From: Bacillota bacterium
GTDB taxonomy: Bacteria > Bacillota > Peptococcia > Peptococcales > BICA1-8
Reading direction: 5' to 3'
Assembly (NCBI GenBank): GCA_049323895.1
Contig: JBMOKT010000017.1
Span: 19,041-83,040 of the forward strand
DNA: 64,000 bases
Part shown: piece after piece, positions 4,169 through 63,430 of the stretch
Layout of the letters: every line of letters begins with the position of its first letter
How positions within the stretch are numbered: position 1 is the stretch's first letter
The notes under the pieces: model-generated
The model's database searches: none
The model's input: only the letters and a program-made list of their open reading frames with translations
Told to the model about the DNA's origin: nothing
Position numbers and translations under genes: made by a program

Positions 4169-4196
4169 GACCATAAAAATTAACCTATTAGGTTAG

Positions 4197-6305
4197 TCAC
4201 ATATGCTTAACCCTGTTTTTCTCTTCAGCCTTTTTAGCATCATTAAATAAGTCCAAAGTTGAAAGATAGCCCGTTATCCTTCTCACCCTACTTATCCTGC
4301 CCTCGGTTCCGCAGGCGGGACAAACTTCCGTATCAATGACCCCGTTGAAACCACATTCCTTGCAAACATCTACAGGGAAGTTAACGGCAGCATAACCCAT
4401 TTCCGCTTCATACATGGCATGGATAATATTTTCAAAGGCTTCTAAATTATTAGTAGGCGCAGAAGGCAACTCTACATAGGAAATATGCCCCGCATTGCAC
4501 ATTTGGTGATACGGTCCCTCAATGTTAATTTTTTCAATAGCACCAATTTTAAAATCTACCGGTATGTGAAAGGAGTTTGTATACCATTCCTTATCAGTAA
4601 TACCAGGGAGTTCTCCAAAAAGCTTTTTATCTTTTGCTACAAATTTCCCGCTTAAACCTTCAGCCGGGGTAGCCAGAAGGGAGAAGTTAAGTTTATATTT
4701 TTGAGTGGCTTCATCACATTTTCTGCGTAAATGTCCGACAATGGAGAGCCCCAAAGCTTGCGACTCCTTGCTTTCGCCGTGGTGTTTCCCCGTTAAGGCC
4801 TTCAATGCTTCCGCTAAGCCAATAAAGCCTAAGCTTAAGGTACCATGCTTGAGAGCTTCTTCAATACAGTCATCAGCAACTAAATTTTCACTGCCCATAT
4901 AAAGCTTTTGTCCCATTAAGAAAGGAAAGTCTTTTACTTTCAACCGCTTTTGAAAATCATAGCGGGTCAGGAGCTGCTTAATGGTCAGTTCTATTACTTT
5001 ATCCAAGCTGCTCCAGAATTCGGATAAATCTCCCTTGGATTTAATGGCTAAACGGGGCAGATTTATGGTAGTAAAAGAAAGGTTGCCTCTCCCATCGGTA
5101 ACTTCTGGTCCATTTACATTTCCGATGACACGGGTCCTGCAGCCCATATAAGCTACTTCATCTTCGTATACGGCATTGAAAGCGGAATCCTGGAAAGAAA
5201 AGTTAGGGAATAATCTTTTGCAGGCAACTTTCATGCTCAAAAGAAATAAGTCATAATTGGGGTCTTCAGGGTCATAATTTATACCGTCTTTAATTTTAAA
5301 ACAAATATTAGGGAAAATTGCAGCCTCCCCCTTGCCCAGACCCTTCTCGTAAGCTTTCAAAAGCTTCTTTGTTATCATTCTTCCGCCTCTGGACGTATCA
5401 GTACCAAGATTTATAGAGGAGAAGGGCACTTGGGCACCTGCCCGGGAATGCATTGTATTCAAGTTATAAATGAATCCTTCCATAGCCTGATAAACTTCAT
5501 CTTCTACCTGTTCCTGAACTATTTCACTTATTTTTCCATCATCACTTTCTAAACCAAGGGACGCTAAAGTATCCCTTAGCATTCTTTCCTGACGGATAAA
5601 CTCTTTTTCCACATACAAACCCATATCCCTGTCAAAGAAAGCAAAAGATTGCCCTCCATGGTGGTCATTCTGGTTGCTTTGCATTATTATGGCTGCTAAA
5701 GCCGCTGCGGTCTTAATGCCTTTAGGGGGTCGGATATAACCATGTCCGTTATTGAATCCCTCTTCCAAAAGTCTTCGCAAGGGAATCTGCAGGCAGGTGG
5801 TAGTTTTGCCATACCAGGCTAAATCATGTATGTAGATATCCCCATTAATATGGGCTTCTGCCTGTTCAGCAGGAATAACTCGTTTTAAGTAATAGTCTTT
5901 GGAGGCAATCTCCGATATCTGCAGGACCTTAGCCGAGGGGGAATTGCCTACATTAGCGTTTTCCCTGCTGGTTTCCCTAAGAACTTCTGCAACAGCGTCC
6001 ATTAGCTCCGATCTGGTTTCCCTAATTCTTGTCCGTCCATCCCTGTATAATATGTAAGCCTTTGCCGTTCTAGCATGCCCTTTCTCTATTAATACTTTTT
6101 CTACAGCATCCTGGACATCCTCCACAGTAAAGACATGACCATTGAACCTTTCCTTTAAATAACGCAAAACATCAATGGTCAATTCCATGGCTGTCTGCTT
6201 ATCTTCACCACCTACAGACTTAGCCGCCTTAAAGATGGCATCGGTTATCTTTCCTTCGTTGAAACCAACTTCCCGCCCATCCCTTTTGCGAATACTTGTA
6301 AACAT
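4197..6305 (-). CDS. nrdD: Anaerobic (class III) ribonucleoside-triphosphate reductase
   Basis: 702 aa. It has an N-terminal ATP-cone, a C-terminal Zn site CKECG...CPACG and the glycyl-radical motif RVRRITGYL. Confidence 0.95.
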   Translation of the reverse strand: MFTSIRKRDGREVGFNEGKITDAIFKAAKSVGGEDKQTAMELTIDVLRYLKERFNGHVFTVEDVQDAVEKVLIEKGHARTAKAYILYRDGRTRIRETRSELMDAVAEVLRETSRENANVGNSPSAKVLQISEIASKDYYLKRVIPAEQAEAHINGDIYIHDLAWYGKTTTCLQIPLRRLLEEGFNNGHGYIRPPKGIKTAAALAAIIMQSNQNDHHGGQSFAFFDRDMGLYVEKEFIRQERMLRDTLASLGLESDDGKISEIVQEQVEDEVYQAMEGFIYNLNTMHSRAGAQVPFSSINLGTDTSRGGRMITKKLLKAYEKGLGKGEAAIFPNICFKIKDGINYDPEDPNYDLFLLSMKVACKRLFPNFSFQDSAFNAVYEDEVAYMGCRTRVIGNVNGPEVTDGRGNLSFTTINLPRLAIKSKGDLSEFWSSLDKVIELTIKQLLTRYDFQKRLKVKDFPFLMGQKLYMGSENLVADDCIEEALKHGTLSLGFIGLAEALKALTGKHHGESKESQALGLSIVGHLRRKCDEATQKYKLNFSLLATPAEGLSGKFVAKDKKLFGELPGITDKEWYTNSFHIPVDFKIGAIEKINIEGPYHQMCNAGHISYVELPSAPTNNLEAFENIIHAMYEAEMGYAAVNFPVDVCKECGFNGVIDTEVCPACGTEGRISRVRRITGYLSTLDLFNDAKKAEEKNRVKHM

Positions 6306-8997: not shown

Positions 8998-9099
8998 CAG
9001 GCAAAGGATAAAAATGGCTAAAATGGTTAAAGTCCTTTCATTCGGAGATTTGTGAATTTAGTAAAAAAACTTCAAATTGAATTTCTTTAGTGCCCAGTG

Positions 9100-9174
9100 G
9101 GGGGTGTCAGGGGACGGTTCTCTGTCACGGCTTGCGCCGAAGGGCGTGACAGAGAACCGTCCCCTGACACCCCC
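9100..9174. repeat. 30-bp perfect GC-rich inverted repeat with a 15-nt loop, between sigE and sigG
   Basis: GGGGGTGTCAGGGGACGGTTCTCTGTCACG (9100-9129) pairs perfectly with CGTGACAGAGAACCGTCCCCTGACACCCCC (9145-9174). The loop is GCTTGCGCCGAAGGG. Confidence 0.9.
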
Positions 9175-9195
9175 GACACCATAAATAAATACGAC

Positions 9196-9217: not shown

Positions 9218-9950
9218 ACTCCATCCTTTGTATTTCTTTTTTCAGTCGTTTAATTATCCTTTTCTCCAATCTTGATATATATGACTGGGATATTCCTAGA
9301 AAATCAGCAACCTCCTTTTGTGTCTTTTCCTGCCCCCCCACCAGTCCGAACCTTAACTCCATTATTTTCTTCTCCCGGGGATTTAATTTTTTCATAGCTG
9401 AATTTAAAAGTTTCTTATCTACTTCCTCCTCTAAGGATTTATAAATAATATCATTCTCTGTACCAAGCACATCACTAAGCAGGAGTTCATTTCCATCCCA
9501 ATCAATATTTAACGGCTCATCAAAACTGACCTCTGATTTCGTTTTGTTGCTTCTTCGCAAATGCATTAAAATTTCATTTTCAATACACCGGGATGCATAG
9601 GTAGCCAATTTGATTCTTTTTACAGGGTCAAAGGTATTAACAGCCTTAATTAGACCAATAGTTCCTATGGAAACCAGGTCTTCTATGCCGATTCCTGTAT
9701 TTTCAAATTTGCGGGCTATATAAACCACTAAACGTAAATTTCTTTCGATTAGGATACTTTTAACGTTAGCATCGCCTGCCTCCAGGCGCTCTAACAAAAG
9801 TCCTTCCTCATCCTGGGTCAGAGGTGGCGGCAGAGCCTCGCTGCTGCCCACATAAAAAATGTCTTCAGAAAGTCCTAGTTTCTTTAAAAGCCTTAAAAAA
9901 ATAATTTTAAAATTTATCTTCCATCTTATTAATTGACCTTCTTGAATCAA
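9216..9950 (-). CDS. sigE: Pro-sigma-E, sporulation sigma factor SigE
   Basis: It has a pro-sequence followed by [17 protein letters not shown] and [37 protein letters not shown]. The start was moved to the TTG at 9950 because GGAGGTG lies 7 nt upstream. The track ORF begins at 9995. Confidence 0.9.
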
Positions 9951-9997
9951 AGATGTCCACCTCCGTTTATTTTGTCTTACAAAATTTCGCTGCAATA

Positions 9998-11941: not shown

Positions 11942-11984
11942 CCCTTGATACCCCCTTTACAGTTTTACTAAAAGATACCAATGT

Positions 11985-12050
11985 TTAGAAAAACACGGCT
12001 TGCGCCAAGCCTTTGGCGGCTGCGGAAAAGTTATGCTCCCTTATAAGTAT
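11985..12050 (+). repeat. Copy 1 of a ~60-bp TTAGAAAACACGGCTTGCGCC element
   Basis: TTAGAAAAACACGGCTTGCGCCAAGCCTTTGGCGGCTGCGGAAAAGTTATG... It aligns with 26430-, 56112- and 58193- (reverse strand). Confidence 0.75.
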
Positions 12051-26413: not shown

Positions 26414-26429
26414 CTATTTCGGCCAGAAA

Positions 26430-26480
26430 TTAGAAAACACGGCTTGTGCCGAGCCTTTGGCGAGTTCTCATAAATATAAA
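26430..26480 (+). repeat. Copy 2 of the TTAGAAAACACGGCTTGCGCC element
   Basis: TTAGAAAACACGGCTTGTGCCGAGCCTTTGGCGAGTTCTCATAAATAT. Confidence 0.75.
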
Positions 26481-28785: not shown

Positions 28786-30186
28786 CTAAACAGATGCTAA
28801 GGTTTCCCGTTTTGCTAAAACATCTGCCAAATCAGCGCCAACCTTCCATATGTTCCCTGCCCCTAAGGTTAGAATTAAATCACCTGACCTTGCTACCTCA
28901 GCTAAATAATTTTCCAGTGATTCCCTATTTTTAAAATAATTTAAATCTGTATGGGGGGGTATATGGTCTGCTATTAATTGGGTTGATACACCTGAAATAG
29001 GTTTTTCACCCGCTGAGTAAACCTCATCTAAAATCAGTTTGTCGGCTAAATCAAAGCTTTTTGCAAATTCCTTTGCTAAAAATTGGGTCCTTGTAAACCT
29101 ATGGGGTTGAAAAACAGCAATAATCCTGCCGGAATGACTACTCCTGGCTGCTTGGAGAGTTGCTTTAATTTCTGTTGGGTGATGGGCATAATCATCAACT
29201 ATTAAAATATCATTAATGTTTGCTATTATTTGGAAACGCCTTTGTACTCCACGGAAGTTAGAAAGTGCCTGGTTTATCTTTTCAAAGCTGATGCCAAATT
29301 CAAGACCAACGGCAACGGCAGCTAATGCGTTACTTATATTATGCTTTCCAGGCACATTTAGTTCCAATTGGCCTATAAATTTATCACCATAGAATATATC
29401 CGCCATACTTGTTAAACCGTTGTATATAATATTTTTCGCTGTATAGTCAGCATCTTCAGCTAAGCCATAAGTTATCAATTTTCCAGGAATATGGTCAGCA
29501 AGTTGCCTGACATAAAAATTATCGTTGCAAAGGACTGAAAATCCTTGAGGACTTCCAAGATCAACAAATTCATTAAATGCTTTTATTATATTCTCCAGGG
29601 AACCGTAATAATCCAAATGGTCATCTTCGATGTTTGTTATTACTGTAGACCATGGTTTAAGCTTGAGGAAGGAACCATCACTTTCGTCGGCTTCAGCAAC
29701 CAGATACTCACCTCTCCCTAACTTTGCATTTCCGCCGATATCATTTAGTTCTCCTCCTACAACTACCGTAGGATCAAATTCATTCTTTTCCAAAACCAAG
29801 GCAATCATTGAAGTTGTTGTGGTTTTTCCATGGGCTCCGGCAATACAAATCCCTTTCTGCCGCTCCATCAGCTGACTAAGCATCTCGGCCCTTTGTAAAA
29901 TAGGAATATTTAATTCCTTTGCCCGCTGAACCTCCTGGTTTTCTTCAGGGATTGCTGTGGAGACCACTACCTTATCCACTCCCTGCTGAATATTTATTGC
30001 CTTGTGCCCGGCATAGACAATCGCACCATTTTCTTCCAGTCTTTTTGTTGTTTCTGATACATTCAAATCTGACCCAGAAACCCTATAGCCTAAATCTAAT
30101 AAAACCTTGGCAATGCCACTCATTCCGGCACCACCAATTCCTACAAAATGTATCCATTCTTTTTTTGCTTTAGTCAAAACTTTCAA
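28786..30186 (-). CDS. murC: UDP-N-acetylmuramate--L-alanine ligase
   Basis: Contains HFVGIGGAGMSGIA, GAHGKTTTTSMI and DDYAHHP. Confidence 0.95.
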   Translation of the reverse strand: MKVLTKAKKEWIHFVGIGGAGMSGIAKVLLDLGYRVSGSDLNVSETTKRLEENGAIVYAGHKAINIQQGVDKVVVSTAIPEENQEVQRAKELNIPILQRAEMLSQLMERQKGICIAGAHGKTTTTSMIALVLEKNEFDPTVVVGGELNDIGGNAKLGRGEYLVAEADESDGSFLKLKPWSTVITNIEDDHLDYYGSLENIIKAFNEFVDLGSPQGFSVLCNDNFYVRQLADHIPGKLITYGLAEDADYTAKNIIYNGLTSMADIFYGDKFIGQLELNVPGKHNISNALAAVAVGLEFGISFEKINQALSNFRGVQRRFQIIANINDILIVDDYAHHPTEIKATLQAARSSHSGRIIAVFQPHRFTRTQFLAKEFAKSFDLADKLILDEVYSAGEKPISGVSTQLIADHIPPHTDLNYFKNRESLENYLAEVARSGDLILTLGAGNIWKVGADLADVLAKRETLASV

Positions 30187-30303
30187 CTCCTTCCAGCCAT
30201 TCTAGCACAACGCAAATATAAAGGCGGAGTATATTCTTTACTTTATATGCAGCATCATGAAAAGATGTTACAACTGCTCCCTTTAGAAGATAATCCTGGT
30301 GAC

Positions 30304-30332
30304 TATTATTGGCTTATGTATAGTATTGTCAA
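30304..30332 (-). promoter_or_regulatory. Candidate sigma-A promoter for murC, downstream of the repeat array
   Basis: The coding strand reads TTGACA-17 nt-ATAATA. Confidence 0.45.
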
Positions 30333-30447
30333 AAAAAAATTGTTCTACATAATGATAAAAAAAAATAAATAGGAACATTAGCAGGCCTGTCCATGCTTTC
30401 TTTAGAGCAAAACTCTTGAGACAGACATGCCAAGCAGCTGTCCTTTT

Positions 30448-30905
30448 GGGTCTGACAATACTAATAATGCGATACTTGGGGTCTGTCTTGGTCAGTTTAT
30501 TGCGTCTGATATACTTCTCGGTCAATTTATTGCGTCCGATATACTTGAGGGTCTAGCTGTTGCGTCTGACATGAACTTTTTGGTCAGTCTATTTCGTCTG
30601 ACATACTTAAGGGTTTAGCTGTTGCGTCTGACACAAGCATTGCATGTTAATCCAAAAGTAGTCAGACTAACAATCTTACTCTGAAGTATATCAGACTAAA
30701 AATGTCCACCCAGAAGCAATTGTCAGACTAGCAATGTTTACCCATTAGAATATCAGACTAACAATGTCACCCAAAAGTATATCAGACCAGTAATCTTCAC
30801 CTAAAAGCAAATCAGACTAGCAATGTTGACTATGAAGAATTGTCAGACGCTCAATCTTCACCCAGAAGTTTATCTGGCAAGCAATCTTCACCCTGAAGTA
30901 AGATC
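30448..30905. repeat. Head-to-head array of about 15 degenerate 28-33-bp units (locus 1)
   Basis: About 6 units of type GGTCAnTTTATTGCGTCTGATATACTT occupy 30448-30638. The centre (30639-30653) contains AAGCATTGCATG. About 8.5 units of type AAGTATATCAGACTAaCAATcTTCACCC occupy 30654-30905. Confidence 0.9.
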
Positions 30906-32000
30906 TTGAAGAACCTTCATTATTTTCTCCAAAGAATCGGGATTTCCTGCTTTTTTCATGTTTACAGACATTTCCTTAAGTTTGTTGGAATCATTAATTA
31001 GCCCTGCAATGGTATTATATAGATTATCCCTATTCAGGTCTTTTTCTAAAATCATGGCTGCACCTTTACTTGCAACTAGTGATCGGGCATTAAATTCTTG
31101 GTGGTTTTCGGCAGCAAAAGGATAAGGAATTAAAATTCCTGGAAGCCCCAGAGAAGTAATTTCTGCAATGAATGTGGCCCCTGCCCTGCCCACACATAAA
31201 TCAGCAGCATTTAGAGCATATTCCATTTCATATATGTATGGCTTAAGAATAATTTTTCCGTATTTTTCCAAATTTATACCCATTGTTGTCAATTTTTCTA
31301 CAATTTGAGTATACCCTTCCTCCCCGGTAGTATGGATCAACTGCAAATTAGGTATGGTTAAAAGTTGAGGATAAATTTCAACCATGGCATTATTGATGCT
31401 TTTTGCTCCCCTGCTGCCCCCGCTGACTAAAAGGGTAAATTTATCTTCCTGGAGACCAAAATATTGGCTAGCTTCTTTTTTGCCAATGTTAAAAATTTCC
31501 TCCCGAACAGGCAAACCTGTTAATATTGTTTTGTTAGGATTGGGGAAATATTTCTGCGAATCGGGAAAAGTTATCATTATTTTATTTACAATACGGGCTA
31601 AGGTTTTATTAGTAAGTCCCGGCAGAGCATTTTGTTCGTGAATAACGGCAGGAATTTGCAAAAGGGATGCAGCTAAAACTACAGGTCCGCACACATATCC
31701 CCCGGTTCCCATCACTACCTGGGGACGGAATTTCCTAATGATATTAAAGGCCTGGGTTCCACCCTGGACTGCTTTTAAACCAGCCCGAGCAGCCTGCCAG
31801 GAAAACTTTCTCTGCCATCCTTCAACTTCAATGGTTGCAAAAGCAATACCTGCCTCAGGTACTATTTTTGACTCTAAACCTCTTTTAGTCCCAACATAAA
31901 GAACTTCTGCCTGCGGATAATTATTTAAGATATGTTTGGCTACAGCCAGGGCAGGATATACATGCCCCCCGGTTCCCCCGCCTGTAAAAAGGATTCTCAT
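30888..32000 (-). CDS. murG: Undecaprenyldiphospho-muramoylpentapeptide beta-N-acetylglucosaminyltransferase
   Basis: Contains TGGGTGGHVYPALAVA and GGSRGA. Confidence 0.95.
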   Translation of the reverse strand: MRILFTGGGTGGHVYPALAVAKHILNNYPQAEVLYVGTKRGLESKIVPEAGIAFATIEVEGWQRKFSWQAARAGLKAVQGGTQAFNIIRKFRPQVVMGTGGYVCGPVVLAASLLQIPAVIHEQNALPGLTNKTLARIVNKIMITFPDSQKYFPNPNKTILTGLPVREEIFNIGKKEASQYFGLQEDKFTLLVSGGSRGAKSINNAMVEIYPQLLTIPNLQLIHTTGEEGYTQIVEKLTTMGINLEKYGKIILKPYIYEMEYALNAADLCVGRAGATFIAEITSLGLPGILIPYPFAAENHQEFNARSLVASKGAAMILEKDLNRDNLYNTIAGLINDSNKLKEMSVNMKKAGNPDSLEKIMKVLQDLTSG

Positions 32001-32088
32001 AAAAAAACCACCATCCCCAAATAGCTTTACGCCTTTTTGCTTTATGTTTAACTTTGGATAAACACAAAAACCAAAAGGCGTAACGAGA

Positions 32089-33186
32089 TTATTTATTGCA
32101 ATACCTGGAAATATTTAGAAGTATTCCCACGCCTACTAAAGAAAGTGTCAATGATGAACCCCCGTAGCTGACAAAAGGAAGGGTTATACCCGTTACTGGA
32201 AGGCTGCCAGTAACTACACCCATATTAATTACCGACTGAACTGCAACGATACTCGTAAGACCAACGGCTACCAGTGAGGCAAAGCGGTCAGGAGCATATA
32301 AGGCAATCCGATAACCCCTCCAGATAAACAAGAAAAACAGGAGAATTACTAAAAGAATTCCGATAAAACCTAACTCTTCACCAATAATCGCAAAAATAAA
32401 GTCAGTATGCCTTTCTGGCAGATAGAGGAATTTTTGCCGACTGTTCCCTAACCCGATGCCAAACAGCCAGCCTGAACCAAGTGCATATAAAGACTGTACA
32501 GTTTGGTAACCTTCATTGCTAGCCGTTTCAAAAGGTTTGAGGTATCCTACAATCCTTTTTAAGCGGTAAGGTTCCTGAATAATAAGAGCTACTACCCCCA
32601 TTATACCCGTTAAGGCCAAACCAAACAGGTGGGTAAACCGTGACCCGGCAGCAAGAAACATACAAAAAGCTGTACCGGCAACGGCAATGGTAGTACCTAA
32701 GTCAGGCTGCTTTAGTAAAAGGGCAGCTACTATTCCCAAAATCCCTAATAAATATAGAAATCCTTTAAAGTTCTTTATTTTTTCGGGTTCTAAACTCATA
32801 ATTCTGGCAAAGAAAAAAACTATGGCCAGTTTTACTATCTCTGAAGGTGCTAAATTAAGAGGACCCAGTACAATCCATCTGCTGGAGCCGTTTACATTTT
32901 TACCTATCCCGGGAATTAAGACCATCACCAAGAGAATAAGCGTTATAACAAATCCTGTTACAATCAGCCTTCTGGTTTTATAATAATCAAAGTTCATAAA
33001 GAAAAACATGGCAGCTATGCCTAGACCGGCCCACATCATTTGCCTTTTTAAAAAATGGTATGGGTCATCATAAAATAACATGGCATGATAAGAACTGGCA
33101 CTTAAAACCATAATCACACCAATGCTCAATAAGAGGAAGGTTGTTAAGAATAGAACGATATCGGGCTGCTTTCTTTTAAAGCTCAC
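32089..33186 (-). CDS. ftsW: SEDS-family peptidoglycan glycosyltransferase FtsW/SpoVE
   Basis: It has 10 TM segments and contains QPDLGT, SNEGYQ and PFVSYGGSS. Confidence 0.9.
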   Translation of the reverse strand: MSFKRKQPDIVLFLTTFLLLSIGVIMVLSASSYHAMLFYDDPYHFLKRQMMWAGLGIAAMFFFMNFDYYKTRRLIVTGFVITLILLVMVLIPGIGKNVNGSSRWIVLGPLNLAPSEIVKLAIVFFFARIMSLEPEKIKNFKGFLYLLGILGIVAALLLKQPDLGTTIAVAGTAFCMFLAAGSRFTHLFGLALTGIMGVVALIIQEPYRLKRIVGYLKPFETASNEGYQTVQSLYALGSGWLFGIGLGNSRQKFLYLPERHTDFIFAIIGEELGFIGILLVILLFFLFIWRGYRIALYAPDRFASLVAVGLTSIVAVQSVINMGVVTGSLPVTGITLPFVSYGGSSLTLSLVGVGILLNISRYCNK

Positions 33187-33190
33187 CCAC

Positions 33191-34549
33191 TCACCCCCTT
33201 AACTGGAAAACCAGTTCCTTAAATACATCGCCCCGATGCTCAAAATTATTGAACATATCATAACTGGAACAGGCAGGAGATAAGAGAACCAAATCCCCTT
33301 TTTGTGCAAAATGGTAAGCAGTCTGAACAGCATCTGCAAAGCTTTCTGCTAAATAAATATTTTTAAAGCCCTCATCCGCCATCGCTTTTTTCAATTCTGC
33401 CGCAGCTTCCCCAACCAAAATTACCTGTTTTACACTTTCTTTGATTTTAGCCGCTAATTCCCGAAAATCACTACCCTTGTTTTTACCGCCGGCTATTAAA
33501 ATTATGGGGTCATTATAAGCTTCCAAAGCTTTAATACTAGCATCGGGATTGGTCCCCTTGGAATCATTGACAAACTTGACTCCATTTATTTCCGCAACTA
33601 ATTCCAAACGATGGGGTACTCCGGGAAAATTAATCAAAGAGGTACTGATTTCTTCTGGTTCAAGCCCTAATAAATAACCGGCTGCCACTGCCGCCATAGC
33701 ATTTTCCAGATTATGGTTTCCTTTGATGCTCACCTGGTCACGGCTGCAAATAACAACGGGTCCTTCTCCAATATCAATTACTATCTGATTATCTGCTAAA
33801 TATACCCCTTCTTCTAACTTATTCCGCCTAGAAAAAAATATCACATGACTTTTAGCTCCGTGAGCTAATTCTTTAACTAAAGGATCGTCAAAATTAAGAA
33901 TAAGAAAATCTTCTTCAGTCTGATTCTTAAAAATCCTTGCTTTGACTGCCCGGTAATTATCCATAGTACCGTGCCTGTCTAAATGGTCAGGAGTTAAATT
34001 AAGGAATACTGCCACCCTGGGTTTGAATTTATCAATGGTTTCCAATTGAAAACTGCTGACCTCTGCAACTATCAGGTCCTTAGCAGTAATATCTTCTACA
34101 TAGTTTATGAGGGGCAATCCAATATTCCCCCCAATTATCACCTTTTTTTGAGCATCTTTAAAAATCTGTCCTATTAGGGCTGTTGTAGTAGTTTTCCCAT
34201 TAGTTCCTGTTACAGCAATAAAAGGAGCTGAAGAATATCTGTAAGCCAGTTCAATTTCACCAATGACAGGAATGCCTTTTATATTTGCTTCAACCAAGGG
34301 TCTAATATTTATTGGAATGCCGGGACTGACAATAATTAAATCGGGTAATAATTGGTTAATTTCCGGCTGTACTCCCCACAAGGTTTGAATACCCAAAGAT
34401 GTAATTTCCTGCTCTACCTGCTTCATAGCCGATGGCTCTTTTATATCAGTTAAGGTGACTTTGGCACCTTTATTTGCTAAAAATTTACTTGCGGCAATGC
34501 CGCTGCGCGCAGCACCCATTATTAATACCTTTTTTCCGGCTGCTTCCAT
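33191..34549 (-). CDS. murD: UDP-N-acetylmuramoylalanine--D-glutamate ligase
   Basis: Contains GAARSGIAASKFL, VTGTNGKTTTTALI and DSKGTNP. Confidence 0.95.
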   Translation of the reverse strand: MEAAGKKVLIMGAARSGIAASKFLANKGAKVTLTDIKEPSAMKQVEQEITSLGIQTLWGVQPEINQLLPDLIIVSPGIPINIRPLVEANIKGIPVIGEIELAYRYSSAPFIAVTGTNGKTTTTALIGQIFKDAQKKVIIGGNIGLPLINYVEDITAKDLIVAEVSSFQLETIDKFKPRVAVFLNLTPDHLDRHGTMDNYRAVKARIFKNQTEEDFLILNFDDPLVKELAHGAKSHVIFFSRRNKLEEGVYLADNQIVIDIGEGPVVICSRDQVSIKGNHNLENAMAAVAAGYLLGLEPEEISTSLINFPGVPHRLELVAEINGVKFVNDSKGTNPDASIKALEAYNDPIILIAGGKNKGSDFRELAAKIKESVKQVILVGEAAAELKKAMADEGFKNIYLAESFADAVQTAYHFAQKGDLVLLSPACSSYDMFNNFEHRGDVFKELVFQLRG

Positions 34550-34568
34550 GGCTACACACTCCTTCTTA

Positions 34569-34642
34569 AGTGGCTAGTTGTTAGTGGCTAGTGGCTAGAA
34601 AAATAAGTGACTGGTGCACTAGTTTGATAGTTTGATAGTTGG
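34569..34642 (+). repeat. Copy C of the GTGGCTAG/GTGACTGG element
   Basis: AGTGGCTAGTTGTTAGTGGCTAGTGGCTAGAAAAATAAGTGACTGGTGCACTAGTTTGATAGTTTGATAG. Confidence 0.8.
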
Positions 34643-34800
34643 CATCTGCTTCTGGGTGAAAATTGTTAGTCCGATTACCTTTAGGAGTAGCTTGCAATGC
34701 TTGTGTCAGACGCAATAAATTGACCAAGAAGTATTCAGACTAAAAAGCTAGACCCTTAAGTACATCAGACCCAACAGCTAAACCCTTAAGTATAATTATA
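34643..34800. repeat. Short head-to-head array of the ~30-bp unit family (locus 2)
   Basis: One unit CTGGGTGAAAATTGTTAGTCCGATTACC is followed by the centre GCTTGCAATGCTT, which is the reverse complement of the locus-1 centre. Three to four opposite units follow: GTGTCAGACGCAATAAATTGACC, AAGTATTCAGACTAAAAAGCTAGACCC, TTAAGTACATCAGACCCAACAGCTAAACCC. Confidence 0.85.
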
Positions 34801-35745
34801 ACTCATCAGCCCTGCTACAACTAATAACGCGGCGGCGGTCCAGAAGGTAAGAACTACCCTTTCTTCCGACCATCCCTTAAGTTCAAAATGGTGATGGAGG
34901 GGACTCATCAAGAATATCCTTTGCCCAGTTAGCTTAAAGGAAATTACTTGCATGATTACCGACAGGGCTTCTAGTACATAAACTCCGCCGATAATGGGCA
35001 GAAACAACTCGGTTTTCGTGAAAACAGCCAGGGCTGCTATTGCGCCACCTAATGCCAAAGAACCAGTATCCCCCATAAAGACTTTGGCAGGATGGATATT
35101 AAAAAACAGAAAACCTAAACAGCTCCCTACTAAAGCTGCACTAAAAACTGTAATACTGAAAAGCTCCTCAGAAAATCCCAATAAAACATAACCTAAGGAA
35201 ACAAAAAGGGTGATTCCGGCAGCCAACCCATCCAAACCGTCTGTCAGATTAACAGCATTGGTAGTGCCTATGGCAACAAATACTACGAAAGGAATGTAAA
35301 ATACACCCAAATCAAAGGTGTTGCCAATAAAAGGAACAAGCAATTGGGTTCCCCTGCCTAGGTAATTTACCGCAGACCACGCCAAGAGCACCGACAATAT
35401 CAACTGACCTATCAGCTTATCCCTGGCTTTTAACCCCAGAGACCTTTTTTTAATAATTTTAATATAATCATCAATAAAACCAATGAGTCCATAACCCAAG
35501 GTAAAAATAAGCAGAACATAAGTAATAAGGCTTTCCTGTGCCACGAATACAGTTCCCAAGGTTAAGCTGAAAAGAAACATAACACCTCCCATGGTGGGAG
35601 TGCCTTGCTTTTGCAAATGTCTTTTGGGGCCATCATCCCTTACACTTTGTCCAAACTTGAGCCGCCTCAGGGCAGGAATTAAGAATGGTCCTAGTACCAG
35701 GCACGCGCCTGTGCTTACAAAAAATGCTATTAAAATATCTTTCAC
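34786..35745 (-). CDS. mraY: Phospho-N-acetylmuramoyl-pentapeptide transferase
   Basis: Contains PTMGG, NAVNLTDGLDGLA and MGDTGSLALGG. Confidence 0.95.
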   Translation of the reverse strand: MKDILIAFFVSTGACLVLGPFLIPALRRLKFGQSVRDDGPKRHLQKQGTPTMGGVMFLFSLTLGTVFVAQESLITYVLLIFTLGYGLIGFIDDYIKIIKKRSLGLKARDKLIGQLILSVLLAWSAVNYLGRGTQLLVPFIGNTFDLGVFYIPFVVFVAIGTTNAVNLTDGLDGLAAGITLFVSLGYVLLGFSEELFSITVFSAALVGSCLGFLFFNIHPAKVFMGDTGSLALGGAIAALAVFTKTELFLPIIGGVYVLEALSVIMQVISFKLTGQRIFLMSPLHHHFELKGWSEERVVLTFWTAAALLVVAGLMSYNYT

Positions 35746-35752
35746 CTGGTTA

Positions 35753-37132
35753 TCACCCCACTAATCCCTGCACAATATTCTCCATTTTCATACCCCTGCT
35801 GCCTTTCACTAGTACAACGTCACCTTTGCTAATATTTTTTTGCAGATATTCCAATGCATCATCATTAGTTTGAGCCAGGATAACACTTTCCTGCCTCATT
35901 CCGGCATCCATCGCTCCCATACCGATGAGCATTCCTAAATCTCCAACAGCTACAATTATATCGATTTTTTCCTTATAAGCCACTGCCCCCATTCTTTTGT
36001 GACCCTCTTCCTGGTATCTTCCCAGTTCATACATATCACCTAAAACAGCTATTTTCCTTTGGCCAGACATCCCGGCAAGGACCTTAAGGGCGGCTTCCAT
36101 AGAGGTAGGATTTGCATTATATGTATCATTGACAATTTGCGCTCCCCCTTTACCCTTGACTATCTGTAAACGCATATCCGTTAATTTTACTTCAGCTAAA
36201 CCTTGCTTTATTTCTGCCCAGGAAAGGTTAAGGCTTCTGGCAACCCCTATGGCCGCCAAAGCATTACTGATATTATGTTCTCCCGGGATATTTAAAGTAA
36301 TAACCTCGGTCTGGTCTAGATAATGCACTCTAAATTGGCTCCCGGCTTCCCCCATAATTTTAATTTGGGAGGCAAAAATATCGCTGGGTCCGTGCAACGA
36401 ATACCATTGGACCTCTGCTTTACATTCCTTAAGCCAAGGTTCTATCAACTTTCTATCCTGCAAGTTTAAAAAGGCAGTACCTTCCTGGGGAAGGTTTTTT
36501 AATAGCTCTGCTTTAGCCTGGGCAATTTTTTCCTGGGACCCCAAGAGTTCGGCATGAACCTCACCAATGTTTGTAATGATTCCATGGGTTGGTTTGGCTA
36601 GTTGACACAAGAAATCAATCTGACCCAACCCCCTCATTCCCATTTCCAAGACAACTGCTTCATGGGATTTATTCAGCCCGCACAGGGTAAGGGGCATTCC
36701 CAGTTCATTGTTATAATTTCCTTGGGTATTAAGGGTATTATATCTTTGGGAAAGGAGATGGGAAACCAAATCTTTGGTTGTTGTTTTTCCGGTGCTGCCG
36801 GTAATACCTATAACCGGAATACTTAAATTTTGTCTAACCAATTTTGCTAAATCCTGCAAAAACCTTAAGGGATCCTCGCAAATAATAAGATTTTTGGATT
36901 CAGGATTTGCTACTGCTTTTAAATTATTGATAACGGCACCCACTGCTCCCTGCTGAAGGGCATTTTCCACAAATTCATGTCCATCAACCCTGTGTCCAGG
37001 GAGAGCAAAAAATAAATCTCCGGGCTGGGCTGTTCTGCTGTCTATAATAGCCCTTTGAGGGTAAATATTTGAGTTGCCCTGGTAACGTGCACCTAAAAGT
37101 TTGGCTAGATTTTGCAGATTCAAATCCAACAT
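35753..37132 (-). CDS. murF: UDP-N-acetylmuramoyl-tripeptide--D-alanyl-D-alanine ligase
   Basis: Contains ITGSTGKTTTKDL and DTYNANP. Confidence 0.92.
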   Translation of the reverse strand: MLDLNLQNLAKLLGARYQGNSNIYPQRAIIDSRTAQPGDLFFALPGHRVDGHEFVENALQQGAVGAVINNLKAVANPESKNLIICEDPLRFLQDLAKLVRQNLSIPVIGITGSTGKTTTKDLVSHLLSQRYNTLNTQGNYNNELGMPLTLCGLNKSHEAVVLEMGMRGLGQIDFLCQLAKPTHGIITNIGEVHAELLGSQEKIAQAKAELLKNLPQEGTAFLNLQDRKLIEPWLKECKAEVQWYSLHGPSDIFASQIKIMGEAGSQFRVHYLDQTEVITLNIPGEHNISNALAAIGVARSLNLSWAEIKQGLAEVKLTDMRLQIVKGKGGAQIVNDTYNANPTSMEAALKVLAGMSGQRKIAVLGDMYELGRYQEEGHKRMGAVAYKEKIDIIVAVGDLGMLIGMGAMDAGMRQESVILAQTNDDALEYLQKNISKGDVVLVKGSRGMKMENIVQGLVG

Positions 37133-37134
37133 TT

Positions 37135-38616
37135 TTACACCTTCTTTGATAAAACTTTTAATATTTCTTCGGCAACTTCCTTATCATCAAAGGGATATTT
37201 CTGCCCTTTTATTTCTTGGTATGTTTCATGTCCTTTGCCGGCAATGATTACAATGTCTCCCCTGTCTGCCATATTGAGAGCCTCTTCAATAGCCTTTTTC
37301 CTGTCAATTACTACCTTATACTTCTCCTGAGTGGAAATCTCCTGCAAGCCGGGCAGAATATCACCTATTATCCTTTCAGGTTCCTCTGACCTAGGATTAT
37401 CCGATGTAACAATACAAAAATCACTATATTGGGCTGCAGCTTTGCCCATGATGGGTCTCTTAGTCCTATCACGGTCACCGCCACAGCCAAAAACAGTTAT
37501 TATTCTTCCTTGTACAAACTCCTGAGCAGTGGCCAAAATATTTATCAGGCTGTCAGGGGTATGGGCATAGTCAACAATCACTGCAAAATCATCAGTACCT
37601 TCTACCAGTTGGAAACGACCGGAAACTGCCATTTGCTTTAGGCTCTGGGCAGCAGCCTGCAGAGGTATGCCAAGGTTAGCTACTACAGCTAGGGCAGCTA
37701 AGGAGTTATATACATTAAATTTCCCTGTCAGCTGCAACTGAACCAAACTATCATTTACTGAATAAGAGACACCAGTGGAAGCTATTTGAATATCTTCTGC
37801 TTTAAAATCAACTGTACTATTAATGCCATAGGTTACGGTTTTGACTTTTGTATCTTTGAGAAGTTTTTGACCCCAGGGGTCGTCACCATTGATCACAGCT
37901 AATTTTTCCCTTGCTTTTGGTGACTTACTCCCTAGTAAACGGGTAAATAAAGCTGCCTTCGCCTGGTAATATTTTTCCATAGTATGGTGATAATCCAGAT
38001 GGTCCTGGGTTAAATTAGTGAAAACAGCAACATCAAAATCGCTGCCCCGTACCCTATGTAAATCTAAAGCATGGGAACTTACTTCCATAATAACACTATC
38101 TACTTTGTTTTCTACCATTTCCTTAAACAGCTGCTGTAAATCTAATGATTCAGGTGTTGTTCGCTCAACCGGAATTATCTTATTACCAATTCTATTATGA
38201 ATAGTTCCTATTAATCCTACCTTATGTCCTTGATCCTCTAAAACTTTTGCAATAAGGTTAGTAGTGGTGGTTTTGCCATTGGTTCCTGTTACACCAATTA
38301 ACAAAAACTCCCGAGAAGGATGGTCATTAAAAGCTGCACTCAAATCGGCAAGAACCTCTCGGCTTGAATTTACTAAAAGCCAGGGGTATCTATCTGAACG
38401 ATAAGCAGCATCCTCGATTACAACTGCACACGCACCATTTGCAATAGCTTTTTCTATATATTTATGACCGTCAGTCTTAAAACCTCTTATTGCAACAAAT
38501 AAGTCATCCTTAGTAACCTGCCTGGAATCATATTTTATACCTTTAATAGCTAAGCCTTCTATCCTGGAAATACTATTTAACTCTATCCCTTCCAGCAGTG
38601 ATGACAACAAAACCAT
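37135..38616 (-). CDS. murE: UDP-N-acetylmuramoyl-L-alanyl-D-glutamate--2,6-diaminopimelate ligase
   Basis: Contains GVTGTNGKTTTTNLI, DYAHTPD, GCGGDRD and the DNPRSE motif. Confidence 0.95.
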   Translation of the reverse strand: MVLLSSLLEGIELNSISRIEGLAIKGIKYDSRQVTKDDLFVAIRGFKTDGHKYIEKAIANGACAVVIEDAAYRSDRYPWLLVNSSREVLADLSAAFNDHPSREFLLIGVTGTNGKTTTTNLIAKVLEDQGHKVGLIGTIHNRIGNKIIPVERTTPESLDLQQLFKEMVENKVDSVIMEVSSHALDLHRVRGSDFDVAVFTNLTQDHLDYHHTMEKYYQAKAALFTRLLGSKSPKAREKLAVINGDDPWGQKLLKDTKVKTVTYGINSTVDFKAEDIQIASTGVSYSVNDSLVQLQLTGKFNVYNSLAALAVVANLGIPLQAAAQSLKQMAVSGRFQLVEGTDDFAVIVDYAHTPDSLINILATAQEFVQGRIITVFGCGGDRDRTKRPIMGKAAAQYSDFCIVTSDNPRSEEPERIIGDILPGLQEISTQEKYKVVIDRKKAIEEALNMADRGDIVIIAGKGHETYQEIKGQKYPFDDKEVAEEILKVLSKKV

Positions 38617-38690: not shown

Positions 38691-38734
38691 AATACAAAAG
38701 AGGAAACAGGTCCTTAAGGACCAATTGTTTCCTC
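38691..38734 (-). terminator. Intrinsic terminator overlapping the PBP stop codon, inside the dcw cluster
   Basis: Minus strand reads GAGGAAACAATTGGTCC-TTAA-GGACCTGTTTCCTC-TTTTGTATT. The loop TTAA contains the stop codon. Confidence 0.6.
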
Positions 38735-40837
38735 ATGGGGTTCCTCGTTTGGCGAGGAAAATTGCACTTTTACAATGGTACCCTGCTCCACCTCTGTGCC
38801 TGGATAAGGTTCCTGCAGGGCAGCCAAACCACTTCCTTGAGGAGCCATGCGCAAACCAATATCATTTAATATTTTACTGGCTTCCTTAATAGTTCTGCCT
38901 GTTAAATCCGGTACCACAATTTGTTGGGACTCATTCAACTGGGAATACAATACTACTAAACTGCCTTTTTGAACTGGAGTGCCCGCCGGCGGCAACTGGC
39001 TGATTATCTTATCGCCGTTCCCTTCAACTTTTACTTCAAGTTTTAGGGCTTTTAGTTCTTTGACAGCTGCCTCAGTGTTTTTGTCCTTGACATCTGGCAC
39101 AGTTATTTGCCCACTGGCAGTTTGCGGTTTTTGCTCTAATTCCGGTGGTATCTGCAAATACCGTAATGTATCCAGTATAATATTTCTAAATACAGGTCCG
39201 GCTACCTGTCCCCCATAATATATACCCTGAGGTGAATCAACAATTACCAATGCAGCAATTCGGGGATTGTCGGCAGGTGCAAAGCCGGCGAAAGACGCTA
39301 TATACTCACTGGTAGAATATCCTCCACCGGGAAGTATTTTTTGTGCAGTACCCGTTTTGCCCGCAACCTTATAACCCTCAATATACGCCTTAGAACCAGT
39401 TCCATCACTTACCACTGTCTCTAAAATAGCCCTTAGTTCTTCTGATGTTGTTTTAGAAATTACCTGTCTCTGCGGCTCTGGGTCATTTTTTCTAACCAAT
39501 TTACCTTCATAATCCCTTATTTCCTTTACCAACTGGGGCTTCATCAGCCATCCATCATTGGCAATAGCAGCGACGGCTCTTGTTAACTGAATAGGTGTAA
39601 CTGCATTGGCCTGCCCTATTGACATGGTTGCCAAGTCAATATCCTTAGCCCTAGTCTTGGGTACCAATATCCCATTAGCTTCACCGGGAAGTTCTATGCC
39701 GGTCTTTTGACCAAACCCGAATCCCTCCAAATACTTATAAAAACGGTCCTTCCCCTGCCGTAAGCCTACAGTTACAAAAACAGGGTTGCAAGAATTCTGC
39801 ACCCCCTCTATAAAAGATTGGCTGCCATGGGGGGTCCGGGACCAGCATTTGATAGTTTCCTTTCCTACTTTTATATAGCCCGGGTCATAGAACCTATCAT
39901 TGGGCTTTACAACATTTTCTTCCATAGCTCCCGCAGCGGTTACCGTTTTAAAGGTTGAACCCGGTTCATATGCATCAGATATAGCAAAATTCCGCCAGGT
40001 GCCTTTGTCATAGTCGGCGTAATTATTAGGATCAAAAACAGGTCTATTCGCCAAGGCCAGAATCTCTCCTGTTTTTACATCCAGTACGAGGATAGCACCC
40101 CTTTTTGCCTGCTTAATCTTCATGACCTGGTCCAATTCACGCTCAATTATGTATTGAATAGTCTCATCAATAGTTAAATAAATACTGTTTCCATCAATAG
40201 GAGGAATATATTGGTGCATAGCATTGGGGATTTCCCGGCCCGCTGCATCGTACTCGATCATGATTTTCCCGGAAACGCCCCTCAGTTCCTTATCATATGT
40301 AAGTTCAATACCGTTAAGTCCCTGGTTGTCAATGCCTGCAAAGCCCAAGATATGGGCTCCCAGGGTGCCTTTAGGGTAATAACGCTGGTTTTCCTCTACA
40401 AAATTGATGCCCGGCAAATCCAGTTCCTTTAATTCCTTAACTTTTTCATCAGGCACCCTGCGTTTTATCCATTCAAAAGCTACCTTTTTATTTATCTTTG
40501 CCAGTATTTCTTCTTTATCCAGTTCTAAAACCTTGCTTAAAGTTTCGGCAATTTCATCTGCCCTTTGGGATCGGCGTATTTGGGACGGGACTGCATAAAC
40601 AGAATCAGCACTTACACTAATTGCTAATGGACTACCATTTCGGTCATAAATAATGCCTCGCTTTGCCTTTACGTCGATATTTCTTAATCGACTATCAATG
40701 GCTTTGGCCTGGAGTTCCTTTCCCATTATTAACTGAATCCAGGCAGCCCTAGCCACTAAAAGGCCTAACAGCAAGGCTGAAATTAAAAAGATAAAGCTGA
40801 TTCTTTTTTTCATAGTTAAACTAACCAAGTTGCCCAC
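38714..40837 (-). CDS. Class B penicillin-binding protein (FtsI/PBP2B/SpoVD type) with two C-terminal PASTA domains
   Basis: It has an N-terminal TM segment, a dimerisation domain, transpeptidase motifs STFK, SCN and KTGT, then two PASTA repeats (VPDV..., VPDLTGRT...). Confidence 0.92.
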   Translation of the reverse strand: MGNLVSLTMKKRISFIFLISALLLGLLVARAAWIQLIMGKELQAKAIDSRLRNIDVKAKRGIIYDRNGSPLAISVSADSVYAVPSQIRRSQRADEIAETLSKVLELDKEEILAKINKKVAFEWIKRRVPDEKVKELKELDLPGINFVEENQRYYPKGTLGAHILGFAGIDNQGLNGIELTYDKELRGVSGKIMIEYDAAGREIPNAMHQYIPPIDGNSIYLTIDETIQYIIERELDQVMKIKQAKRGAILVLDVKTGEILALANRPVFDPNNYADYDKGTWRNFAISDAYEPGSTFKTVTAAGAMEENVVKPNDRFYDPGYIKVGKETIKCWSRTPHGSQSFIEGVQNSCNPVFVTVGLRQGKDRFYKYLEGFGFGQKTGIELPGEANGILVPKTRAKDIDLATMSIGQANAVTPIQLTRAVAAIANDGWLMKPQLVKEIRDYEGKLVRKNDPEPQRQVISKTTSEELRAILETVVSDGTGSKAYIEGYKVAGKTGTAQKILPGGGYSTSEYIASFAGFAPADNPRIAALVIVDSPQGIYYGGQVAGPVFRNIILDTLRYLQIPPELEQKPQTASGQITVPDVKDKNTEAAVKELKALKLEVKVEGNGDKIISQLPPAGTPVQKGSLVVLYSQLNESQQIVVPDLTGRTIKEASKILNDIGLRMAPQGSGLAALQEPYPGTEVEQGTIVKVQFSSPNEEPHEETIGP

Positions 40838-41379: not shown

Positions 41380-41606
41380 GGTATTCTCCCTCCTTCAAAT
41401 TTAGAACAAAATTCGTTGATTGGTCTGTTCGTCAAGTCGTCTTTTCGCTCTATATCTGTACTAAAAATAGTTATTGGTGACTGGTGACTAATAAAAATAA
41501 TTAATATATCTGTGTCCACCCGTGTGTGAAAGTCATCCGTGGCTAAATTTTCTCTTTCGACTGGTGCTTGCAACATGTGGGTCTGTGGCCCTGGATCATT
41601 CTCATG

Positions 41607-56055: not shown

Positions 56056-56111
56056 TTTATTCCCTTCCTTCTACTTACATACCCTTCTCTACCAATAATT
56101 TCATTTACAAA

Positions 56112-56170
56112 TTAGAAAACAGGGCTTACACCGAACCTATGGCAACCGCGGAAGCCGATGTTGTACTTAT
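56112..56170 (+). repeat. Copy 3 of the TTAGAAAACACGGCTTGCGCC element
   Basis: TTAGAAAACAGGGCTTACACCGAACCTATGGCAACCGCGGAAGCCGATGTTGTACTTAT. Confidence 0.75.
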
Positions 56171-56210
56171 ATTTATTACCTTGCAAAAATTATACTTTCT
56201 AAATAAGTAT

Positions 56211-57932: not shown

Positions 57933-58134
57933 ATTTCAACCCCTTATTGCTTTCTTTTTGACTCCTTTGCTTTATTCGCTAATAAGGCATACTATCCTTT
58001 TGTTAATTAATGCAAAAGAAAAAGCACCGGGGACAGGTACTTTTGCTTGTAAATTACAATAAAGGAACGACCCGAGGTCCATTCCTTATTTATACATATC
58101 AGAAGGTATAAAACCTCCCAAAAAGGTAATAAGC

Positions 58135-58193
58135 ATAAGTGCAACATCGGCTTCCGCAGTCGCCAAAGACTCGGCGCAAGCTATGTTTTCTAA
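58135..58193 (-). repeat. Copy 4 (inverted) of the TTAGAAAACACGGCTTGCGCC element
   Basis: The reverse complement reads TTAGAAAACATAGCTTGCGCCGAGTCTTTGGCGACTGCGGAAGCCGATGTTGCACTTAT. Confidence 0.75.
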
Positions 58194-58196
58194 TAC

Positions 58197-63069: not shown

Positions 63070-63430
63070 TAAGGAATTCATTCTATGTCAGTTATATCTA
63101 AAAGGATTCATTTTTGGTCAGTTTCTTGCTCACGGGATTCATTGTTGATTAGTTAGTTCTAGTGGGATTCATGCTTTGTCAGTTATTTCTTAAGGGATTC
63201 ATTTTGAGTCAGTTATATCTGTGTGATTCATTGTTTGTAAGTTACTTCTATTGTAATCTTCGATTGTCAGTTAAAAACTGACTAACAATGTTCACCTAGA
63301 AGCATCAACTGACTAACAATCTCAACCCTTAAGCATTGTCTGACTAGCAATCTACACCCATTAGCCTTATCTGACTAGCAATCTTCACCCAAAAGCATTA
63401 TCTGACCTACAATGTTTACCCATTAGCCTT
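63070..63430. repeat. Head-to-head array of about 12 units of the ~30-bp family (locus 3)
   Basis: About 7 units of type GGGATTCATTTTGAGTCAGTTATATCT occupy 63070-63262. The centre is ATTGTCAGTT-AAAA-ACTGACTAACAAT. About 5.5 opposite units of type TTAAGCATTGTCTGACTAGCAATCTTCACCC run to 63430. Confidence 0.9.

Follow-up and report, generated by a model that had tools for sequence, protein, structure and literature searches.

The spacer between mraY and murD in the window (the whole 64,000-nt stretch of DNA analysed here) carries a small member of a dispersed repeat family, and we favour, with moderate confidence, the reading of it as a truncated and flipped copy of a mosaic, non-coding repeat that has spread by copying and fills gaps at near-neutral cost. 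This copy, locus 2 (34646–34793), comprises four units of ∼30 nt, one on the minus strand, then a centre, then three on the plus strand, within a 236-nt gap. The family is best read as a new mosaic interspersed repeat whose lifestyle is closest to that of BIME, BOX and MIRU elements, though it is a member of none of them; the architecture of its element ends is closest to multi-site transposon ends. The 30-nt family is apparently undescribed, as full-text searches of the literature turned up no account of it. Its anatomy, distribution, gene context and turnover are observed and are described below.

The minus strand of the window holds the complete dcw cluster of a spore-forming Bacillota. The gene names mraY, murD, murG and murC in the initial annotation are borne out by NCBIfam equivalogs, which name the following genes:

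38714–40837, minus strand: spoVD (NCBIfam equivalog)
37135–38616, minus strand: murE (NCBIfam equivalog)
35753–37132, minus strand: murF (NCBIfam equivalog)
34786–35745, minus strand: mraY (NCBIfam equivalog)
33191–34549, minus strand: murD (NCBIfam equivalog)
32089–33186, minus strand: spoVE/ftsW (NCBIfam equivalog)
30888–32000, minus strand: murG (NCBIfam equivalog)
28786–30186, minus strand: murC (NCBIfam equivalog)

The exact MurD protein is matched only in one NCBI record and one Logan contig. Over 11.4 kb, locus 1 (the related array between murG and murC) included, the Logan contig agrees with the window at every position. It ends 46 nt upstream of murD, within a heptamer module, as assemblies commonly do when they break at a repeat; locus 2 therefore rests on one assembly. 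The window's own lineage is represented by one other contig, and more than 20 contigs from the population of Clostridiaceae bacterium BRH_c20a are identical. The synteny flanking mraY and murD is intact. Elsewhere in the cluster, a murC leader (GCATATAAAGTAAAGAA...CTAGAATGGCTGGAAGGAGTTGAAGG, ∼30190–30332, minus strand) is conserved in the window and five related genomes, is preceded by a sigma-70-like promoter that matches at 11 of 12 positions (30332–30305), and may be an unrecognised cis-regulatory leader.

Read in the TCAGAC-first orientation, and with the body subtypes defined below, the features of the mraY–murD gap are as follows:

34765–34793, plus strand: outermost long-arm unit, c-type body AGCTAAACCC, with the mraY stop TAA inside
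34735–34763, plus strand: second long-arm unit, c-type body AGCTAGACCC
34706–34734, plus strand: innermost long-arm unit, b-type body AAATTGACC, 93% identical to the locus-1 unit at 30511–30539
34675–34705, no strand: polar centre, a degenerate half-unit plus the motif TGCAATGCTTGTG running into the first core
34646–34674, minus strand: lone short-arm unit, a-type, TCGGACTAACAATTTTCACCCAGAAGCAG on the minus strand, unit score 32.7
34620–34640, no strand: run of TAGTTTGA, 2.6 copies, bridging the array and the heptamer module
34569–34616, no strand: heptamer module, GTGGCTA copies, then GAAAAATAA, then GTGACTG, 94% complementary to 4121–4168
34559–34564, minus strand: murD ribosome-binding site AAGGAG, 9 nt ahead of the ATG at 34549

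The initial annotation had described one unit in one orientation and three to four in the other, running into the mraY stop. The opposed layout holds, with three opposed units, not four, and the stop TAA (34786–34788, minus strand) does fall within the CTTAAG of the outermost unit. A possible overwriting of the MraY tail by the repeat was considered and not sustained: the tail ...(Y/F/V)T(F/L/I)(G/S/M)* also occurs in relatives without arrays, so the TATACTT at the end of mraY is native sequence that resembles the outer end of a unit. At the other end of the gap, the heptamer module lies 20–67 nt upstream of the murD start, its part at 34569–34598 has a period of 7 and 4.3 copies, and the murD ribosome-binding site beside the repeats is intact. 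Array, TAGTTTGA run and heptamer module stand together here, a co-localisation of repeat families that had been claimed from the first reading.

The likeness of locus 2 to locus 1 goes far beyond what AT-rich sequence offers by chance, the objection against which the initial annotation had asked for a check. The unit at 34765–34793 differs from the locus-1 unit at 30603–30631 at 1 of 29 positions (expected 0 in 100 dinucleotide shuffles), and one locus-2 unit used as a query recovers locus-1 units at 1 and 3 mismatches per 29 (expected 0). The 23-mer TGCAATGCTTGTGTCAGACGCAA, which spans the centre and the first core, has exactly two copies in the window, at 34693–34715 (plus) and 30622–30644 (minus; expected 0), and a 13-position skeleton, TCWGAC-N11-ACC-N3-AAG, matches 10 times, each time in one of the three repeat loci (expected 0.02). 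A repeat search between loci 1 and 2 returned matches of 29 nt (97% identity), 29 nt (93%) and 56 nt (79%). As the initial annotation had it, the centre motif of locus 2 is the reverse complement of that of locus 1, the 23-mer being identical in opposite orientation. Locus 2 is a shorter, inverted relative of locus 1. It follows all the architecture rules of the family, with 3 + 1 units and flipped relative to locus 1 in the same operon; it is a small, flipped and probably decaying family member. Scans for promoter and terminator consensus found none inside locus 2, and the only strong promoter is that of murC, outside the array. Rfam 15 gave no match in the window at gathering score and, at E≤1, none inside either array; four weak, chance-level matches lie elsewhere in the interval searched (30100–35000).

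The window contains further members of the family and of the heptamer modules:

30481–30901, no strand: locus 1, full-size member in the murG–murC gap, with the murG stop TGA in the outermost unit
63071–63431, no strand: locus 3, variant cores CTGAC and (other arm) TAACTGAC, ∼6 units on one arm and 5 on the other
4096–4194, no strand: heptamer module with one weak 30-nt unit (4166–4194)
677–751, no strand: third copy of the heptamer module

In transcript direction locus 1 consists of 8 a-type units, the centre and 5 c/b-type units, with higher-order periods of 62 and 91 nt. Locus 3 is flanked by a fragment of a RecD-like helicase gene and by a lysE-type gene, and its centre is a short palindrome, TTGTCAGTTAAAAACTGACTAACAA. 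At all three window loci the upstream stop codon sits inside the outermost unit (mraY, murG and the ORF at 63416–63955). The module and unit at 4096–4194 fill the whole gap from the stop of the ORF at 4197–6305 to the next start codon. Heptamer modules, as runs of GTGGCTA and GTGACTG, are found upstream of minus-strand starts, the three larger copies 14–40 nt away; a further heptamer run is present at 41475–41489. Locus 3 also contains the string TAACTGA, the heptamer described in Beggiatoaceae, possibly by coincidence. Two other repeat features of the window may be recorded. A dispersed repeat beginning TTAGAAAACACGGCTTGYGCCGAGCCTTTGGCG has four copies (11972–12017, 26416–26461, 56098–56182 on the plus strand and 58123–58194 on the minus strand); this repeat has no relation to the 30-nt family and no Rfam match at gathering score. 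At 9097–9177, between two minus-strand ORFs, there is a GC-rich near-perfect palindrome of 81 nt, with 40-nt arms that are 90% complementary and a predicted RNA fold of −77.6 kcal/mol.

A position weight matrix built from the window's units collected 299 units from the window and related loci, against 8 false matches in 509 kb of shuffled sequence. The unit consensus is TCAGACGCAAAA(T/G)NTTNACCCNNAAGTA; across the 299 units, positions 1–6, 8, 12, 15, 18–21, 25–26 and 28 are near-invariant, and the core with its neighbouring base forms GTC(T/A)GAC, a 7-bp palindrome. Two body subtypes dominate, the a-type (ATNTTCACC) and the c-type (AGCTAGACC). A full element has a first arm of a-type units (TACT..GGGTGAA..GCGTCTGA), a polar centre of ∼20 nt (GATAAA..AAGCTTGTG), often placed around a heptamer run, and an opposed second arm of c/b-type units (TCAGACGC..AGCTAGACCC..AAGTA). 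The centre is no unit itself: one side reads GTCTGA-TAAA and the other AAGCTTGTG-TCAGAC; TAAA faces the a-type arm and GCTTGTG the c/b-type arm. This asymmetric motif recurs across genomes. A heptamer run (GTGCCCA and similar) followed by an A-run lies inside the centre in 8 of 31 two-armed elements. The initial annotation was thus right that the array in the mraY–murD gap is joined to the heptamer element, and wrong that the two are unrelated.

The orientation of the units is strict. Among neighbouring units within 300 nt of each other, 112 junctions join two minus units, 97 join two plus units and 31 are divergent (minus then plus), with no convergent junction (plus then minus); an element accordingly always consists of units pointing away from a single centre. 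Spacing from start to start is 29–33 nt with a mode of 31 (40 cases at 30 nt, 77 at 31 nt and 55 at 32 nt). Elements are 150–650 nt long, with up to 13 units per arm. Units of the same arm are 70% identical, against a genome background of 67%. Within units, covariation analysis gave only subtype and register signals; conservation plotted against unit rank from the centre or the edge, a test of growth polarity, showed no gradient; and any ORFs within the elements are short and due to chance.

Only a small clade of uncultured, Peptococcaceae-like Bacillota carries the family. When one genome per species (596 Gb) was scanned with a stringent two-unit pattern, 43 loci matched. Of these, 40 belong to five metagenome-assembled genomes of related organisms, namely Clostridiaceae bacterium BRH_c20a (abundant in Mont Terri borehole samples), Peptococcaceae bacterium BICA1-8, Clostridia bacterium DJKA51_ANT-F21_bin.3, Clostridia bacterium AS01afH2WH_13 and Peptococcaceae bacterium Bins.048. 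The three remaining singletons are isolated chance matches in unrelated phyla. In metagenomes the pattern was found at 23 loci from a few samples. It had no match in viral contigs, and BLAST of locus 1 against plasmids and phages returned none, so a phage, plasmid or viral origin was set aside for those collections. MurD of the family-bearing organisms is 65–72% identical to that of the window. In the cultured relative Desulfonispora thiosulfatigenes (59% MurD identity) the dcw region is without units, and the pattern has no match.

Arrays occupy a defined place between genes. In two-armed arrays the first unit follows the upstream stop codon at a median distance of 3 nt (17 of 21 within −29 to +16), and the last unit ends a median of 20 nt short of the downstream start, which leaves just the ribosome-binding site. 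The preferred context that the initial annotation suspected is therefore real, as a fit to stop-to-start gaps. Flanking ORFs are co-directional for 21 of 24 two-armed arrays, which is not above the 91% of adjacent ORFs in the same loci, so co-directional gene pairs as such are not enriched; one apparent exception, in L029, is an artefact of the ORF length cut-off, and that array too lies between small co-directional genes. The genes that flank arrays are of ordinary kinds, with a PHP-domain gene followed by rapZ, uvrA by uvrC, cpaB by a cpaE-like gene, a P-type ATPase gene by dapF and a RecD-like gene by a lysE-type gene. Among 377 ORFs (∼0.4 Mb of related loci) neither a recurrent neighbour nor a transposase was found beside the arrays. 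The first reading had also stressed that two essential-gene junctions of one operon carry the same family. Both do, and the pattern is incidental, with dozens of loci lying beside ordinary genes.

Comparison of the mraY–murD gap across relatives shows turnover at this site:

Desulfonispora (L052): gap of 15 nt, empty
L054: gap of 27 nt, empty
L048, the closest relative: gap of 29 nt, heptamers only
Window: gap of 236 nt, locus 2
BRH_c20a (L045): gap of 349 nt, heptamers and three units
L047: gap of 361 nt, units with the GATGCATC core
BICA1-8 (L046): gap of 394 nt, units with the GATGCATC core
Bins.048 (L053): gap of 739 nt, near-identical units

In BICA1-8 (L046, 2600–2760) and L047 (9730–9860) the unit bodies are those of the window's family, with GATGCATC, an 8-bp palindrome, in place of the usual core; cores seem to be exchangeable modules. 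The Bins.048 gap (L053, 9261–10000) contains near-identical units, perfect 61-nt dimers and two runs of N, from which we conclude that the array expanded recently and is longer than the assembly resolves. BRH_c20a and BICA1-8 are 88–90% identical across the dcw genes and the murG–murC gap, and their mraY–murD gaps are unalignable. With gaps of 15–29 nt free of 30-nt units in three relatives as well, conservation of the array at this junction, which the initial annotation had proposed to examine by synteny, does not hold. The broader comparison of spacers came out divided: the family is conserved across the clade, and individual arrays are not.

Other sites show both persistence and change. One orthologous array is ∼95% identical between BRH_c20a and BICA1-8, species that are ∼90% identical overall; in another, units have been gained or lost at the centre and the edge, and the length of the heptamer run has changed. 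The murG–murC gap is ∼290 nt without an array in most relatives, so the window's array, an extra 408 nt, is an addition at the murG stop. BRH_c20a and L047 have an array between mraZ and mraW, where the window's gap is 13 nt. A search for a filled and an empty site in close strains found no such pair, and mobility of the elements is accordingly inferred, not seen. The gaps of relatives also hold other tandem modules (L045 17618–17679, L047 17936–17961 and L045 9863–9902), including AGGCTA ×10 and 21-mers CTTAATCTAACGAAACGAAAT; a 37-nt piece is common to different dcw gaps of sister species; and a conserved segment upstream of murD (CTGTAGAACTGTAGGTTCGGAAA..., L045 ∼9925–9985 and L047 ∼9910–9975) is absent from the window.

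The 30-nt family resembles several known repeat systems in part. REP units are imperfect palindromes with a stem of at least 5 bp and a GTAG or CGTC tag; their stems measure 5–13 bp, and the same survey reported no REPs in Firmicutes (PMC3733652, Di Nocera et al. 2013). Like the BIME/REP sequences of Enterobacteria and Pseudomonas, the family is high-copy, non-coding and extragenic, is located mostly downstream of coding regions between co-directional genes, and is a mosaic of two opposed unit subtypes with specific linker motifs that can form large hairpins. CGTC does occur in GCGTCTGA, and CGTC-type REPs likewise have no dedicated transposase, none being seen for the 30-nt family either. The best stem within a unit is only 4 bp (positions 14–17 with 23–26), however, and only 54% of 280 units have complementary bases at the pair 17/23. 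Whereas BIME units alternate in orientation, those of the 30-nt family run head to tail within each arm and switch once per element (209 same-orientation junctions against 31 switches). No RAYT (IS200/IS605-type) gene was found among the 377 ORFs in ∼0.4 Mb of array loci.

BOX elements of Streptococcus pneumoniae, reportedly described by Croucher et al. in 2011, are said to iterate boxB between unique boxA and boxC modules. They too are modular intergenic repeats of a Firmicute, with one module iterated in variable number, pairable ends and co-transcription with neighbouring genes, which for the 30-nt family is presumed. Their iterated module is central, whereas the 30-nt family iterates both arms round a unique centre, and the two have no sequence similarity. 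The MIRU of Mycobacterium, as Supply et al. are said to have reported in 1997, are units of 46–101 bp with small ORFs, in direct arrays only. In both systems tandem units fill operon gaps, touching the upstream stop and the region of the downstream start, and copy number varies between lineages; the medians of 3 nt and 20 nt given above show the same gap filling. MIRU have no opposed arm or centre, whereas the present elements are two-armed, use both orientations and have a period, mostly 31 nt, that is not a multiple of three.

The heptamer modules have parallels of their own. STRR heptamer repeats of heterocystous cyanobacteria were reportedly described by Mazel et al. in 1990, and Elhai et al. 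are said to have found in 2008 that heptamer runs of Nostoc are associated with other small dispersed repeats. Heptamer direct repeats such as TAACTGA occur upstream of start codons in Beggiatoaceae, Cyanobacteria and Bacteroidetes, and Firmicutes are not among the phyla given for them (PMC4679880, MacGregor 2015). The modules described here are similarly short intergenic 7-nt runs, a few to tens of nucleotides before starts, and at least two tandem 7-nt units stand near a start at 34569–34598, 4096–4168 and 677–751. They differ in their units (GTGGCTA, GTGACTG and GTGCCCA), in their Firmicute host and in that runs are built into the centres of 30-nt elements.

The elements also share features with MITEs and with the ends of multi-site transposons, being small, non-coding and dispersed, with mutually inverted arms and unidirectional units in each arm; the opposed arms and the size of 150–650 nt fit terminal inverted repeats of this kind. 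The ends of Tn7 and Mu carry several transposase-binding sites, and Tn7-L and Tn7-R differ, as the two arms of the present elements differ in subtype. The family departs from MITEs and transposons in its ill-defined terminal sequence, its up to 13 units per arm and in that no target-site duplication was found: the longest common substring of the flanks averaged 4.07, against 3.96 for mismatched flanks (expected 4.04), a comparison that short duplications could escape, the element ends being fuzzy. No autonomous, transposase-bearing partner was found in the array loci examined, and there were no phage, plasmid or viral matches. The units are unlike CRISPR repeats, being contiguous at 29–33 nt from start to start, without spacers, and set in two opposed arms.

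Alternatively, the arrays might act as a platform at the level of DNA, their phased units bound by a putative dimeric, clade-specific protein such as a nucleoid-associated protein, recombinase or transposase. We think this unlikely but a genuine contender, and extend the same limited credence to its corollary that the protein would load in opposite directions from the centre and that arrays would be kept through the protein's use of them. The palindromic nature of the invariant core speaks for such binding, the more so as the swapped GATGCATC core of the relatives is again palindromic on the same bodies. The usual spacing of 31–32 bp approximates three helical turns, and the 31-to-0 polarity recalls multi-site transposon ends. 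The same positions are conserved on both arms, regardless of the direction of transcription, and in-register cross-arm pairs show no G·U asymmetry (412 sense, 396 antisense). These duplex-DNA features would suit either a host protein or an enzyme that copies the element. Against a platform, there is no candidate protein and no gene recurrently linked to the arrays, which lie in gaps between stop codons and ribosome-binding sites, not at promoters. Unit number varies freely between sister species, whole gaps are replaced, and a spacing range of 29–33 nt is loose for cooperative phasing.

It is also conceivable, although we regard it as rather improbable, that the elements are host-selected in cis at the level of RNA, with the two arms pairing in the operon mRNA as a long interrupted hairpin. 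Such a hairpin would set the processing, stability or translational uncoupling of neighbouring cistrons, as REP/BIME and BOX can, an effect to which we attach equally little weight. The arrays do lie between co-directional genes without a terminator consensus, loci 1 and 3 fold into long interrupted hairpins (z = −5.95 and −4.5), and 18 of 19 elements fold better than shuffles (z from −2.4 to −14.7), but locus 2 is no better than its shuffles (core z = −0.7, whole-gap z = +0.16, neither significant). The sense strand is the more stable in 14 of 19 elements and has the more negative z in 15 of 19, and the polarity of the centre agrees with the direction of transcription in 11 of 15; as wobble asymmetry is absent, the energy difference between strands may reflect composition. 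Loci 1 and 2, moreover, are oppositely oriented in the same operon. Co-evolution across arms is rejected, since the arms of one element are 62.8% alike, against 66.9% for random units of the same genome, and none reaches 85%. In-register pairing covers only ∼18 of 29 positions, and covariation within units is absent. The pairing potential is thus real and shows no sign of selection, with neither G·U excess, arm similarity nor covariation, and hairpin potential alone leaves the 31-to-0 polarity unexplained.

A chance likeness in AT-rich spacer or a metagenome assembly artefact is highly improbable and effectively refuted: the Logan contig does break in the heptamer module and the L053 arrays do contain N gaps, but the shuffle controls expect ∼0 matches, locus 1 is identical in the Logan contig, independent assemblies of several species have the same architecture, and the synteny flanking mraY–murD is intact.

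The best explanation, in our inference, remains a near-neutral mosaic repeat that is copied between gaps. Whole elements would be copied to new sites, and the recurrence of the same asymmetric centre at many loci in several genomes argues for this over local generation. Arms would then grow or shrink by slippage or unequal recombination, in single units and in blocks of two to three; the 62/91-nt periods of locus 1, the 61-nt dimers and the unit indels between species point to local duplication and loss. Elements would persist where they are harmless, after one gene's stop codon and ahead of the following ribosome-binding site, and are presumably co-transcribed there. At the mraY–murD junction the copy supplies the context of the mraY stop codon and spares the murD ribosome-binding site. 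With no promoter or terminator consensus, too little length for a significant fold and an intact ribosome-binding site, the effect of locus 2 on the dcw operon is probably near neutral.

Two observations sit uneasily with the filler reading. The ∼16 conserved unit positions have stayed fixed although MurD is only 65–72% identical between these genomes and the window, which argues for a sequence-specific constraint that harmless filler leaves unexplained and keeps protein binding alive as a reading. The orthologous array that is ∼95% identical in species ∼90% identical overall likewise counts against filler. It is conceivable, if doubtful, that units and heptamers form the cis half of a clade-specific system with a putative dimeric protein or pair of paralogues; as a long shot, such protein(s) would match the cores GTCWGAC and GATGCATC, load at a phase of ∼31 bp and spread from a centre between cistrons. 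If so, the system could mobilise the element to stop-proximal sites or set expression within operons; either role would make it a novel type of multi-site mobile element or of operon punctuation for the Firmicutes, in parallel with the unexplained heptamer repeats of cyanobacteria and Beggiatoaceae.

For the dcw operon itself the near-neutral repeat probably has little consequence, and relatives manage with a mraY–murD spacer of 15–29 nt. The arrays break short-read assemblies, they shift gene ends because the repeat supplies stop codons, and they could serve as strain markers. More broadly, the family shows that the intergenic repeats of a subsurface, anaerobic Bacillota lineage match those of Nostoc or the enterobacterial BIMEs in density and modularity, and its architecture is unusually strict, with 31 divergent against 0 convergent junctions, swappable palindromic cores and a polar centre. 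Should there be a binding protein or a copying enzyme, the family would be a clean and simple substrate for finding it.
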